A stretch of 36,679 nucleotides of DNA, from the IMG/VR virus record IMGVR_UViG_2579778919_000010; one strand, written 5' to 3'. Each line of letters starts with the position of its first letter. Positions within the stretch are counted from its first letter, which is position 1. Made by a program: the position numbers and the translations under genes. The notes under the pieces were generated by a model. That model searched no databases. It was not told where the DNA came from and saw only the letters and a program-made list of their open reading frames with translations. This document shows, in pieces, positions 1 to 33,832 of this stretch. The stretch comes from a virus. Taxonomy: Duplodnaviria > Heunggongvirae > Uroviricota > Caudoviricetes.

Positions 1-231
1 ATGAGTGAAGGACCAGGCGGGCCACAGGGAGCGACCGCAGGCGGTACGCTGGCAATGCGAATGCTGTCACAGCAGGCGATGGTCGCCAGCCAGATGAAAC
101 GGGCAGCCAACGACAAAGCCATTGCACAGATGTTGGCATCAAAAAAGTCTGGCCCCCCCGCCGCCAGGCTGGGTGCCGCGCGCCAATCAAAACGCGACAC
201 ATTGACAACTAACATTGGATCGCGTTTGTGA
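1..231 (+). pseudogene. 5' part of a gene split by the prophage insertion. Codons 1-57 are native; the last 19 codons (174..231) are read out of the prophage terminus until a stop
   Basis: ORF is open from the ATG at 1 (an upstream frame ends with TGA at 2-4, giving an ATGA overlap) and crosses the inferred junction at 173/174. Joined to 33070..33832 it reads ...SGPPAARLG/DEIQHKSFLGALAGAVLGAIV..., recreating AARxxDxxxH followed by hydrophobic helices. An internal ATG at 130 would put the motif at residues 11-20. Confidence 0.6.
169..173. repeat. Target-site duplication CTGGG, copy next to the prophage right (R) end
   Basis: CTGGG at 169-173 directly precedes TG at 174; the same pentamer is at 33065-33069 directly after CA at 33063-33064. 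Mu-type transposition makes 5-bp duplications. Confidence 0.6.
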
Positions 232-238
232 TCATGAT
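174..238. promoter_or_regulatory. Prophage right-end (attR-like) terminal region, probable transposase-binding sites
   Basis: TGCCGCGCGCCAATCAAAACGCGACACATTGACAAC... begins with TG and shares the AAAACGCGA core with the recalled Mu R1 site (about 11 of 16 matches over one 16-nt stretch); lies between the terminus and the gin stop. Confidence 0.45.
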
Positions 239-793
239 TTATATGTCAGATGCTGGGAATCGTTTGTACAGAGTTGAGATTCCGACGTCATAAATTAGGG
301 CCACCCTCTGACGAGTTTCGCCAGCCGCTAACAATCTTCCAGCCTGCGCCCACTGTTCAGGTGTTAACTTAGGTCTTCGACCTCCCACGCGCCCCTCAGC
401 TCGCGCAGCAGCCAGACCTGCACGTGTACGTTCAACAATCAGTTCACGTTCCATCTCGGCCAATGCCCCCATAACATGAAAAAAGAAGCGCCCCATTGGC
501 GATGAAGTATCTATGCTGTCAGTCAGACTTTTAAAGTTGATACCTCGCTCGCGTAGTTCTTCCACCAGTCCAACCAGATGACGCATGCTGCGTCCGAGGC
601 GATCAAGCTTCCAGACCACGAGGGTGTCACCTTCAGATAGCGTTCTGAGTACCCGTTTTAGTCCGGGTCTGTCTGAGGTTCTGCCGCTTATCTTGTCTTC
701 AAAAATCAGCTCACATCCTGCACATTCCAGCGCATTACGCTGTAATGCCGTGTTCTGGTCATTTGTTGATACACGTACATAGCCAATAAGCAT
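239..793 (-). CDS. gin: Serine DNA invertase, Gin/Pin/Hin/Cin family
   Basis: Translation from MLIGYVRVSTNDQNT... with catalytic-serine motif YVRVS, GDTLVVWKLDRLGRS and C-terminal HTH (ALIYDVGISTLYKR). ORF track begins 12 codons upstream at 829; the conserved N-terminus argues for 793. Confidence 0.93.
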   Translation of the reverse strand: MLIGYVRVSTNDQNTALQRNALECAGCELIFEDKISGRTSDRPGLKRVLRTLSEGDTLVVWKLDRLGRSMRHLVGLVEELRERGINFKSLTDSIDTSSPMGRFFFHVMGALAEMERELIVERTRAGLAAARAEGRVGGRRPKLTPEQWAQAGRLLAAGETRQRVALIYDVGISTLYKRFPASDI

Positions 794-847
794 GGTTAAA
801 CTCACTTTAAATGGCGGGAATAATGCCATTTGAGCGACTAACGATCA

Positions 848-873
848 TTATCGAAAACGTTGGTTTAATTGGT
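848..873. repeat. gix/hix-like invertase crossover site A, next to gin
   Basis: TTATCGAAAACG-TT-GGTTTAATTGGT: left half matches the hix/gix half-site TTATCAAAAACC in 10 of 12 positions; about 55 bp upstream of the gin start; inverted relative to site B. Confidence 0.6.
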
Positions 874-1446
874 AAATCAAATCGTCGTAATCGTAGACCG
901 GCATCTGATGAACTGGACATGCTCATTGAAGGTCTTCAACAACGATCTACACATAAATGCTCAAAAATTCCGTTCGTTGATATCCTCAAATTTTCTGTGT
1001 GGTCATGTATGCGAATCGGTGAAGTATGCCGATTACGATGGGAGGATCTCGATCAGGAACAAAAATCCATACTCGTAAGAGACAGGAAAGATCCACGTAA
1101 AAAGGAAGGCAACCATATGAAAGTAGCCTTGCTTGGGGAAGCCTGGGATATCGTCCAACGACAACCCAAAAAATCAGAATTCATTTTTCCATATAACAGC
1201 ACTTCTGTTACTGCGGGATTCCAGAGGGTAAGAAGCAAATTAGGTATTAAAGATCTGCGATACCATGATTTGCGTAGAGAAGGGGCAAGTCGCTTATTTG
1301 AGGCTGGTTTTAGTATTGAGGAAGTCGCCCAGGTTACAGGGCATCGTTCATTAAACGTGCTATGGCAGGTATATACCGAACTGTATCCGAAATCTTTACA
1401 TAATCGTTTTGAAGAGCTCCAAAGGAGCAGAAATAAGACCTCTTGA
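862..1446 (+). pseudogene. Tyrosine recombinase catalytic-domain remnant (no N-terminal domain, no own start) in the alternate arm of the invertible segment
   Basis: MRIGEVCRLRWEDLD (box I-like), DLRYHDLRREGASRLFEAGFSIEEVAQVTGHRS (box II-like) and a conserved Y in LWQVYTELY. The ORF-track N-terminus 811-861 lies outside the segment over the gin promoter/site A and is discounted. Confidence 0.55.
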
Positions 1447-1507
1447 CACTGTTTATCCATACAGTTAAAAATAATACTGTATACAACCACAGTATAGAGG
1501 GACTTTT
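1443..1507 (+). promoter_or_regulatory. LexA-regulated promoter: -35 TTGACA, -10-like TAAAAA(T), two SOS boxes
   Basis: TTGACA at 1443-1448; CTGT-N8-ACAG at 1449-1464 (cactgtttatccatacagtt) and at 1477-1492 (tactgtatacaaccacagta); AGAGGGA Shine-Dalgarno before the ATG at 1508. Confidence 0.7.
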
Positions 1508-31837: not shown

Positions 31838-32073
31838 TATGCAACCTCTTTGACTGATACAGCTTCATAACGTGAGGGCCAAATATCTCTGGGGGTAAGC
31901 CCCAGAAACTCAGCAATAATTTTTTCCCCTTTCGGCCAGTGGTGGCGGAATACATTTCGTAATGTTGATTCCGCTAATCCGTTGCTTCTGGAGAGCTGAC
32001 TGGTAGTCATCCCACGTTTCCTAATCGCTGCTTTGATGTCTTCCGGGTGCCAGTCTTGGCTTTTGGTCATCAT
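31837..32073 (-). CDS. ner: Ner-like DNA-binding early regulator
   Basis: 78 aa; DWHPEDIKAAIRKRGMT...HHWPKGEKIIAEFLGLTPRDIWPSRY matches Mu Ner as recalled; stop overlaps the A start. Confidence 0.9.
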   Translation of the reverse strand: MMTKSQDWHPEDIKAAIRKRGMTTSQLSRSNGLAESTLRNVFRHHWPKGEKIIAEFLGLTPRDIWPSRYEAVSVKEVA

Positions 32074-32302
32074 TCTGCGATCCTTAAATGTTTACACGTT
32101 CAGGTCAGCAATATCGCTAACCACTACGAGTAAAGATTAGAACACAAAAGAACGAAAGTAAATACTTTTGCGTACTTTTATGGTTGATGAGGTTAACCAT
32201 GATATTTTATTTAAAATCAAATCGTTACTTGATTTTCCGTGGTTAATCACAAAAAAGTACCAGATGTATTTTTCAATAACACAGAAAAGTACGGTGAATG
32301 AT
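32074..32302. promoter_or_regulatory. Early operator / divergent promoter region between ner and c
   Basis: AT-rich; repeated TACTTTT / AAAGTA elements (cgaaagtaaatacttttgcgtacttttatgg, aaaagtaccag, gaaaagtacgg) resembling Mu repressor-binding repeats. Confidence 0.55.
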
Positions 32303-32767
32303 ATGGTTGATTTTAGTGAATGGGTGTCAGTTCAGGATTGTATTGGTCTACCAGGTTTCCCCAGTGGAGCGCCGAATGTCCGGCGGAAACTGGAACAACT
32401 TGTGAGTAATAATCCTAAGTTGAAACGTAAGAAGGCTAAATCGAAAGCATATGAATATCATGTATCGGTCTTGCCAGAAGAAACAAAGAAATTCTTGGGG
32501 GTAGAAGAGCGCTCAGTTATACCTGACTCAGCCTTATCGTCACCAAGCTCAACAGCTCGGGACCTATGGATAATGCTTTTCGACAACTTAACAGAGCGTC
32601 AAAAACAGTATGTTATTAAGGTTTTCATGCAAGGTGGGCTGAACGCTTTAATGCCGATGGTAGCTGATTTGGAAGCCAGTGCAGATAGAGAGATTTTTGA
32701 ACAACGTGATCCCAATGAACAGATTCAAGCCGCGCCGAAGCTGAGCACGCGAAATAAAGCTGGCTGA
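32303..32767 (+). CDS. c: Repressor c (Repc-like), with N-terminal DNA-binding domain paralogous to the transposase N-terminus
   Basis: DFSEWVSVQDCIGLPGFPSGAPNVRRKLEQL...AKSKAYEYHVSVLPEE parallels the A N-terminus DFWVTAKECVGICSFPNAEKNVRKHLESF...TKAFEYHISVLPPE. Start uncertain: 32168, 32264 and 32303 are all in frame; upstream candidates overlap operator-like repeats. Confidence 0.65.
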   Translation: MVDFSEWVSVQDCIGLPGFPSGAPNVRRKLEQLVSNNPKLKRKKAKSKAYEYHVSVLPEETKKFLGVEERSVIPDSALSSPSSTARDLWIMLFDNLTERQKQYVIKVFMQGGLNALMPMVADLEASADREIFEQRDPNEQIQAAPKLSTRNKAG

Positions 32768-33064
32768 TTGCAAAAGTGCTCAATTGGCTGGCTTTACCTT
32801 CGCACCTCCTGTGGGCATTTTAAGCTGAGTTTAAATCCCGTTAAACGCTTTGAAATTAACTGCTATACGATCCAAATCTATGTGACACTTAACTGGCTTC
32901 GCTATCGAATGATCCAAAATTGACGATATGCCAGATTTTCCACAAGTCGAGTAGCTTAACGTTGTGCGAAGCCTCACAACTCAAGCCTTCCTCCCGTTAA
33001 TTCCCATGAATTCCCGGTTATTCCCGGGTTCTCTGTTTGATCCATACATCACTGTCACTAGTCA
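32768..33064. promoter_or_regulatory. Prophage left-end (attL-like) terminal region
   Basis: Non-coding stretch between the c stop and the inferred CA terminus; contains three exactly 10-bp-phased ATTCCC repeats (33000, 33010, 33020) and GATCCAAA(T/A) repeats. Confidence 0.45.
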
Positions 33065-33069
33065 CTGGG
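33065..33069. repeat. Target-site duplication CTGGG, copy next to the prophage left (L) end
   Basis: Identical to 169-173; follows CA at 33063-33064. Confidence 0.6.
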
Positions 33070-33832
33070 CGATGAAATTCAGCACAAGAGTTTTTTGGGG
33101 GCGCTGGCAGGGGCCGTACTGGGGGCGATAGTGACCATCGCAGAAGGTTGCCTGATTATGGCCGCCTGTGCCACCGGCCCTTATGCGCTGGTTCTGGTGC
33201 CTGCGCTGATGTATGCCAGCTATAAGGCGAGTGATTATGTGGAGGAGAAACAGAACCAGCTTGAATCATGGATAAACAGCTTTTGTGACACGGACGGCGC
33301 CATCAATACCGGTTCTGAAAACGTAAAAATTAACGGCGAGCTGGCCGCACGTGCAGCGGTCACCCTTCCCCCTCCTCCCCCACCTGGAGCAATACCTGAA
33401 GTCCCACAGGGGGAACCCTCATGGGGTGATATTGCCACTGACCTGCTTGAATCGGCAGCGGAAAAAGCAGTACCACTGGCGAAGGCCTGGGGGAACGCTG
33501 TTATCACCCTGACGGACAGCAATGCCGGTTTTATGGATCGCGTCAGCGCCGGCGCATCGCTTCTGTTTCCCGCCGGTCCGGTATTAATGGAGTTTGCCAC
33601 CATGGTGGGCGGGCGTGGCGAAATCAAAAAAGAGGTGGATTTCCCGGAAGCCGGTGAGGACACGGCGCTCTGCGACAAGGAGAACAAACCACCGAGGATA
33701 GGCGCGATCACTTTCATCTACTCCGTTACAAAGCGAGGCTGGGTATTTCCCGGCCTTTCTGTTATCAGAAATCCACTGAAAGCACAGCGGCTGGCTGAGG
33801 CGATAAATAATAAACGGGGGCTGTATGACTGA
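33070..33832 (+). pseudogene. 3' part of the split gene: hydrophobic helices, a PAAR-like motif and a C-terminal domain of unknown function
   Basis: Frame open from the junction (DEIQHKSFLGALAGAVLGAIVTIAEGCLIMAACATGPYALVLVPALMY...NVKINGELAARAAV...PPPPPPG...); the ORF track shows only the TTG-initiated part from 33095; stop overlaps the dam-like start by 8 nt. Confidence 0.6.

Follow-up and report, generated by a model that had tools for sequence, protein, structure and literature searches.

The virus record IMGVR_UViG_2579778919_000010 (Caudoviricetes), whose 36,679 nt are hereafter called the window, raises a double question: which gene was broken when an element of 32,891 bp inserted close to the left end of this stretch, and did the break matter to the host? 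An earlier note, made from the letters of the window, had observed that the two halves of the gene, once joined, restore the motif AARxxDxxxH of type VI secretion system (T6SS) prePAAR effectors, and had concluded that such an effector gene was inactivated by the insertion. Comparison with Escherichia coli genomes leads us to a different answer. The locus very probably results from three successive events at the vgrG-eag-rhs island on the cusS side, the last being the arrival of a Mu-like phage in what was already a pseudogene.

The insertion joint and its empty site

The repeat, the joint and the reading frame are confirmed. The pentamer CTGGG stands as a direct repeat on both sides of the element (table 1), whose first bases are TGCCGCG and last bases CTAGTCA, giving termini TG...CA; more fully, the element starts with TGCCGCGCGCC and finishes with CACTAGTCA. 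Mu strand transfer is described as occurring with a 5-bp stagger at a target of consensus 5'-CYSRG (PMC7350765) or, more loosely, NYSRN (PMC2602771), and CTGGG belongs to the eight pentamers that CYSRG allows. Joining 1..173 to 33070..33832 yields 936 nt without internal stop, encoding 311 residues; the repeat falls in the phase CTG+GG in both copies, and the product reads KKSGPPAARLG up to the joint and DEIQHKSFLG beyond it, with AARLGDEIQH at residues 54-63. In the window as it stands, the left fragment is an open reading frame (ORF) of 76 residues (1..231), 18 codons of which reach into the phage end, and the ORF at 33095..33832 is merely the downstream remainder of the split gene.

The element-free window (3783 nt) matches E. 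coli VREC0864 (NZ_LR536431.1) with 0 mismatches; in that strain CTGGG is single and the site uninterrupted. Judged by this identity, VREC0864 is the true empty site for the insertion. The joint is not a product of chance, because VREC0864 carries it uninterrupted at 3783/3783 bases, and the motif is rebuilt across it because the insertion has been removed from a known gene. More than 2,000 E. coli genomes have the same sequence across the joint, with an identity of up to 99.8% (nt 1-805), and the full-length homologue of strain 55989 reaches 1620 residues. The boundary, the single frame and the restored motif proposed in the earlier note, as well as its expectation of intact homologues that agree at the joint, are thus borne out.

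A chimera of an Rhs gene and a phage gene

The identity of the gene follows from a three-way comparison of the window, the Rhs gene EC55989_RS02825 of strain 55989 and Escherichia phage PhiR30_1. Identity to the Rhs gene ends at nt 805 of the joined ORF (window position 33701), and identity to orf60a of the phage runs from 33699 on, the two frames coinciding. By this comparison the 311-residue product is a chimera, made of Rhs residues 1-268 followed by orf60a residues 11-53. Indeed, nt 1-805 of the joined ORF share 99.8% identity with the 5' end of large Rhs genes, the Pfam family DUF1317 matches residues 267-308 (E 2.8e-22), and at least 80% of the fused query is covered in 2,142 of the 5,426 complete E. 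coli genomes searched. All components are of known kinds, and the fused sequence is already annotated in RefSeq, where VREC0864 is given an Rhs pseudogene and a DUF1317 gene at this place.

The intact homologue in strain 55989, encoded by a gene of 4.86 kb, is a class I prePAAR Rhs protein with prePAAR_I (54-100), PAAR_motif (267-310), DUF6531, 10 RHS repeats (E 1.5e-77) and Tox-MPTase4. When the rebuilt ORF was submitted to the hidden Markov model searches suggested earlier, the outcome was mixed: prePAAR_I was found above its cut-off at residues 54-100, PAAR_motif only below it (131-152, 15.8 bits for a cut-off of 27). The NCBIfam scan returned only a sub-threshold T6SS_PAAR_dom (13.2 versus 124), and Pfam gave no RHS_repeat or toxin domain match in the 311 residues. 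The stretch that scores as PAAR in the 55989 homologue lies mostly beyond the breakpoint at residue 268. Among structures, the rebuilt product matches Rhs1 of Photorhabdus laumondii (7PQ5; E 2.3e-12, residues 48-172) and Rhs1NT of Salmonella (6XRF), and AARLGDEIQH aligns to the motif in both. After the prePAAR motif come one hydrophobic region and then a first PAAR-type motif: the Kyte-Doolittle mean exceeds 1.6 only where the averaging span is centred on residues 73-85 and 92-96, and past residue 120 its maximum is 1.35.

The earlier note had further proposed a C-terminal domain of approximately 130 residues that it did not recognise. This stretch dissolves into an insertion of approximately 100 residues within the PAAR domain, a few residues of the resumed PAAR domain and the phage tail of the ORF. 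At the insertion point the sequence of 7PQ5 is AARATTDIAVCSKHPAPPLIAQG; in the E. coli protein, approximately 100 residues separate AARAAV from LCDKENKPPRIAQG, and for these no Pfam family match was obtained. The insertion (window 33240-33665, product residues approx. 156-255) opens with the proline-rich run TLPPPPPPGAIPEVPQ, at a place where P. laumondii Rhs1 (7PQ5) has approximately 7 residues. At the other end of the protein, the annotated Rhs start puts 53 residues (window 1-159) before the prePAAR motif; the motif of 6XRF aligns from chain residue 5. An internal methionine at codon 44 (MLASKKSGPPAARLGDEIQH) would restore the usual prePAAR spacing, and the true Rhs start codon may lie downstream of window position 1.

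Class I prePAAR effectors are described as Rhs proteins of approximately 1,200 residues that combine AARxxDxxxH, one transmembrane domain (TMD) region and a PAAR domain, and that depend on Eag chaperones (Ahmad et al. 2020, PMC7773334). The named systems are Rhs1/SciW of Salmonella Typhimurium, RhsA/EagR1 of Pseudomonas protegens and Rhs1/EagR of Photorhabdus laumondii (PMC7773334; Jurenas et al. 2021, PMC8636562). The intact 55989 allele resembles them in its full vgrG-eag-rhs set, its RHS repeats and its C-terminal toxin Tox-MPTase4; the E. coli family differs from them by the approximately 100 extra residues within PAAR and, with the annotated start, by the 53 residues before the motif. What the remnant shares with class I is the AARxxDxxxH motif, the single TMD region between prePAAR and PAAR, and the start of the PAAR domain. 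Unlike class I proteins, it keeps only residues 1-268, followed by a tail that comes from a phage protein: the chief scoring portion of PAAR, the Rhs YD-repeat cage, the C-terminal toxin, vgrG and most of eag have been lost, so that the product has no complete PAAR domain and the locus no adjacent intact eag and vgrG. This allele is therefore the remnant of a class I prePAAR Rhs member and not itself functional as one. The T6SS prePAAR architecture claimed earlier holds for the family (owing to the matches to 7PQ5 and 6XRF), whereas the complete effector does not, an Rhs N-terminus having been fused to orf60a. Membership of class II, the small Tse6-like prePAAR effectors, was considered and rejected, as there is one TMD region and the motif GxxxxGxxLxGxxxD was not found in the product.

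An alternative has nevertheless to be weighed, namely that the 311-residue ORF is a complete, small, prophage-borne prePAAR effector with a new C-terminal toxin domain of approximately 130 residues, inactivated by the insertion. The uninterrupted ORF, the prePAAR match above the Pfam cut-off, the one TMD region and an LAAR motif are what such an effector would display. We nonetheless consider it very improbable, as residues 1-268 correspond to the N-terminal part of a 1620-residue Rhs protein (at 99.8% nucleotide identity) and residues 269-311 belong to orf60a/DUF1317, the main PAAR scoring part lies past the breakpoint, and both a second TMD region and the class II motif are missing from the product. 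Moreover, phage dam, rather than an immunity gene, comes next and overlaps the stop codon; on the upstream side vgrG and most of eag have been lost; and RefSeq calls the same sequence a pseudogene.

Two deletions and a probably later insertion

The history that we propose for the locus starts from the arrangement seen in strain 55989. This strain has no prophage at this place; its Rhs gene lies between cusS and nfrB, preceded by vgrG and by a DcrB-family (Eag-type) chaperone gene, intact, and the order further on is rhs, ..., nfrB, nfrA, ybcH, envY, tRNA-Arg. The ancestral order would accordingly have been cusS, vgrG, eag (DcrB/DUF1795-type), a class I rhs of 4.86 kb, downstream genes, nfrBA, ybcH, envY and tRNA-Arg, and the tRNA gene must, in this lineage, have been adjoined by a lambdoid prophage whose integrase was of the intD type.

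What is left of that prophage stands to the right of the chimera. It is 99.9% identical to PhiR30_1 (33840-36679) and collinear with it over orf60a-dam-orf61-traR-DUF4222-int; unlike in PhiR30_1, no more than roughly the last 3 kb of the prophage are kept, everything from exo leftwards having been deleted and orf60a having lost its first 10 codons. In the identical sequence of VREC0864, the gene of the integrase bears the name intD and adjoins tRNA-Arg, the tRNA gene being just outside the window, and the annotation reads 'Rhs, missing C-terminus', DUF1317 family protein, phage N-6-adenine-methyltransferase ... intD, tRNA-Arg. Lambdoid prophages of this kind beside tRNA-Arg are of the same type as DLP12 of K-12.

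The first event was an illegitimate deletion at a 3-nt microhomology, which took everything from Rhs nt 806 through orf60a codon 10 and left Rhs residues 1-268 in frame with orf60a residues 11-53, as a non-functional chimeric ORF of 311 codons. The rhs gene would lie beside dam and int because this one deletion started within rhs, took in nfrBA, ybcH and envY, and went on through most of the lambdoid prophage. The presence of such a gene next to a dam/xis/int module, which had seemed unexpected, is thus accounted for by a lambdoid remnant at tRNA-Arg brought alongside by that same deletion.

A separate deletion took vgrG and, from the 5' end, two thirds of eag. On contig ATJZ01000037.1 (GCA_000482045.1), which holds the window, 880 nt lie between cusS and the rhs start codon (7770-8649 of the extracted stretch); the first 705 are the cusS-vgrG intergenic region and the last 177 are the 3' end of eag with its spacer. 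Relative to 55989, this corresponds to a deletion of 2,264 bp, with all of vgrG and two thirds of eag gone. The Eag-type chaperone gene that was to be sought upstream is thus represented by its 3' end only, and vgrG is absent. The region upstream in VREC0864 is arranged alike and differs by 1 mismatch over 8.6 kb.

The Mu-like phage, probably last, entered the remnant at codon 57/58 by MuA-type transposition. In this step MuA joins the 3' ends of the element to target bonds staggered by 5 bp, and gap repair duplicates CTGGG; that the insertion fell within the prePAAR motif is a coincidence. We place the deletions first because VREC0864 shares both of them, with identical breakpoints, and yet its target is unduplicated and uninterrupted; it is the only one of the 5,426 genomes to carry the fused 936-nt sequence uninterrupted. 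If the gene was already dead when the phage arrived, the insertion would therefore have had no functional consequence for type VI secretion. The view that the insertion inactivated the gene is accordingly not sustained, the gene having probably been truncated beforehand, with vgrG and most of eag deleted upstream.

The reverse order, in which the phage hit an intact and functional Rhs gene and the deletions came later, would make the insertion the inactivating event, and the window alone cannot order the events. It is extremely improbable, however: VREC0864 has both deletions with identical breakpoints and nearly the same upstream 8.6 kb, but an empty target, so that the reverse order requires either identical independent deletions or a precise excision of the phage. 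Precise excision of Mu is rare. Furthermore, a phage at this place with a full-length Rhs gene downstream was found in 0 of the 5,426 genomes.

No result contradicts the history in which two deletions preceded the insertion; several points limit its strength. How large the main deletion was and what it contained are deduced from 55989 and PhiR30_1, and not from an ancestor of the strain, and the order of deletions and insertion rests on parsimony. The prePAAR_I match is barely over its cut-off (26.1 versus 25 bits) and reaches 24.2 in the full-length 55989 protein. Lastly, foreign DNA replaces part of the invertible tail-fibre segment of the Mu-like prophage, which bears on whether this prophage is still active.

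Table 1. Features of the window, in order of position.
Feature	Position	Strand	Basis
Rhs remnant, 5' piece: codons 1-57 + 2 nt, to PAARLG of the prePAAR motif	1..173	+	Identical to VREC0864; 99.8% to the start of 55989 EC55989_RS02825
Target-site duplication CTGGG, copy 1	169..173		Repeat comparison; matches 5'-CYSRG, the consensus for Mu targets (PMC7350765)
Mu-like transposable prophage, 32,891 bp	174..33064	-	Pfam domains; repressor/transposase end at 33064, invertase end at 174
Gin/Pin-type serine DNA invertase, phage right end	239..829	-	Resolvase domain E 7e-51 and HTH_7
Lambdoid fragment (3' part of integrase gene and dinI)	867..2120	+	Pfam Phage_integrase, DinI; 97-99% identical to mEp460-type phages
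MuB-type AAA+ target-capture ATPase	28821..29759	-	Phage-MuB_C E 2.1e-22; AAA_22
MuA-type DDE transposase	29855..31837	-	DDE_2 E 8.7e-112, HTH_Tnp_Mu_1, HTH_Tnp_Mu_2, Mu-transpos_C
Mu-type repressor (c-like), divergent from early operon	32168..32767	+	HTH_Tnp_Mu_1 E 3e-08; position as Mu c gene
Target-site duplication CTGGG, copy 2	33065..33069		Repeat comparison
Rhs remnant, second piece, to codon 268: DEIQH, TMD region, first PAAR motif, family-specific insertion	33070..33701	+	Identity to 55989 Rhs
Deletion junction Rhs/orf60a, 3-nt microhomology TAG	33699..33701		Three-way comparison of window, 55989 Rhs and phage PhiR30_1
Lambdoid orf60a (DUF1317), 3' part, codons 11-53, in frame with Rhs remnant	33702..33832	+	DUF1317 E 2.8e-22; nucleotide identity to PhiR30_1
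int-proximal lambdoid remnant: dam, orf61, traR-like, DUF4222 gene, intD-type integrase	33825..36679	+	Pfam Dam, zf-dskA_traR, DUF4222, Phage_integrase

The Mu-like phage, its sites and the bearing of the locus

On every feature that sequence can test, the insert is a Mu-like transposable phage. Like Mu, D108 and SfMu, it combines the MuA architecture with MuB, a Mu-type repressor, a Mu portal, head and baseplate genes, a Gin-type invertase at the right end, TG...CA termini, a 5-bp duplication that matches CYSRG and unrelated insertion sites; the Pfam scan, besides the portal, also detected a terminase and a tape-measure protein. The differences from Mu are equally clear. Across its whole length, MuA shares just 51% identity with the Mu, D108 and SfMu transposases (tblastn), the element measures 32.9 kb versus about 37 kb, no com/mom gene lies past its invertase, and a lambdoid int'-dinI fragment replaces part of its invertible tail-fibre segment. 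No close nucleotide relative was found by megablast among 50,697 deposited phage genomes, which gave short mosaic matches; the best match, Klebsiella phage Kp4866-3, shows 72.8% identity over 17% of a 19.8-kb query. The earlier note had not recognised the Mu-like identity of the insert.

The terminal sequences of this phage family, TGCCGCGCGCCAATCAAAACGCG and TGACTAGTGACAGTGATGTATGG, occur at other places in E. coli. The terminus at the invertase end is present in 5 of the 5,426 genomes, with a different flank each time; both ends were read at two sister copies only, those of ECONIH4 and VREC0864, further flanks at the invertase end coming from CAVP776, EC09 and ECONIH5. In ECONIH4 the prophage, 99.98% identical to the element over 29.8 kb, occupies a different site, where it interrupts a lambdoid tail gene and is flanked by the duplication ATGGC. 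The relative in VREC0864 (81-98% identical) lies inside a second Rhs gene, adjoining ybbP, with the duplication GCCGG. All three duplications, CTGGG included, fit NYSRN, and that of the window also fits CYSRG. The six mapped sites are this Rhs remnant, the lambdoid tail gene, a DUF932 gene, yiiF, a truncated gene beside narL and the Rhs gene beside ybbP. A search with the left junction of the window found the phage at this Rhs-remnant site in 0 of the 5,426 genomes.

Both sister copies show features of their own. That of ECONIH4 (NZ_CP026399.1 567500-604500) is a prophage within a prophage, its host being the lambdoid tail gene, and carries an IS66-family element in its tail-fibre assembly gene, at 30093-33047 of that stretch. 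That of VREC0864 (approx. 3407-35620 of NZ_LR536431.1 3771500-3812500) splits its Rhs gene into a DUF6531 N-terminal and an RHS-core C-terminal fragment. The tail-fibre region is damaged in both well-sampled copies of the phage, the one in ECONIH4 and the one in the window.

The TG...CA ends, the 5-bp duplication and the unrelated sites together characterise Mu-type transposition. Site-specific integration of the element was rejected, since the same ends are found at unrelated sites with differing 5-bp duplications. That the element came by site-specific or homologous recombination, or that the contig is an assembly chimera, without any transposition, is next to impossible: the source is indeed a draft assembly, and the element does contain a tyrosine integrase gene fragment and a serine invertase gene, but the integrase piece is a 3' fragment within foreign DNA, the duplication is perfect, the ends are TG...CA with MuA and MuB both encoded, identical ends recur at five further, unrelated places (with differing duplications at the two fully read), and one 52-kb contig contains both junctions.

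Of the six insertion sites known, two fall in Rhs genes and the other four in unrelated genes. Assuming that Rhs genes make up approximately 0.5-2% of the chromosome, the chance of at least two Rhs hits in six is 0.0003-0.006; when the window, which was ascertained, is left out, there is one hit in five, with a probability of 0.02-0.10. A preference of this phage family for Rhs genes as targets appears unlikely. Coincidence is a much more likely reason for two Rhs insertions in six than a target bias, and dispensable genes tolerate insertions more readily.

As regards the foreign DNA in the tail-fibre segment, homology to the sister Mu-like copies stops at 866 and restarts at 2121. Just upstream of the invertase gene, a gix-like sequence (TTATCGAAAACGTTGGTTTA, 848-867), spotted by eye, holds the homology break. 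The canonical Mu gix gave no match at up to 3 mismatches, and a partner site was not found, an inverted-repeat scan of 1-4200 returning short pairs only, which are probably due to chance. It is probable that the lambdoid DNA was captured via the invertase site into the Mu-type invertible segment, and with no partner gix site found the tail-fibre switch may have been lost.

Beyond correct annotation, the significance of these results is small. Two by-products may be of modest use: an E. coli family of Mu-like prophages, delimited to its exact ends, with six mapped sites and no close deposited phage relative, and what is probably an instance of lambdoid DNA being captured, through an invertase site, in a Mu-type invertible segment. 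For the T6SS, the locus is a clean example of the decay of an effector island, through the loss of vgrG and eag, the truncation of rhs into a neighbouring prophage and a Mu-like insertion. It also illustrates that two unrelated genes can lie fused in what reads as one uninterrupted ORF bearing a good motif.

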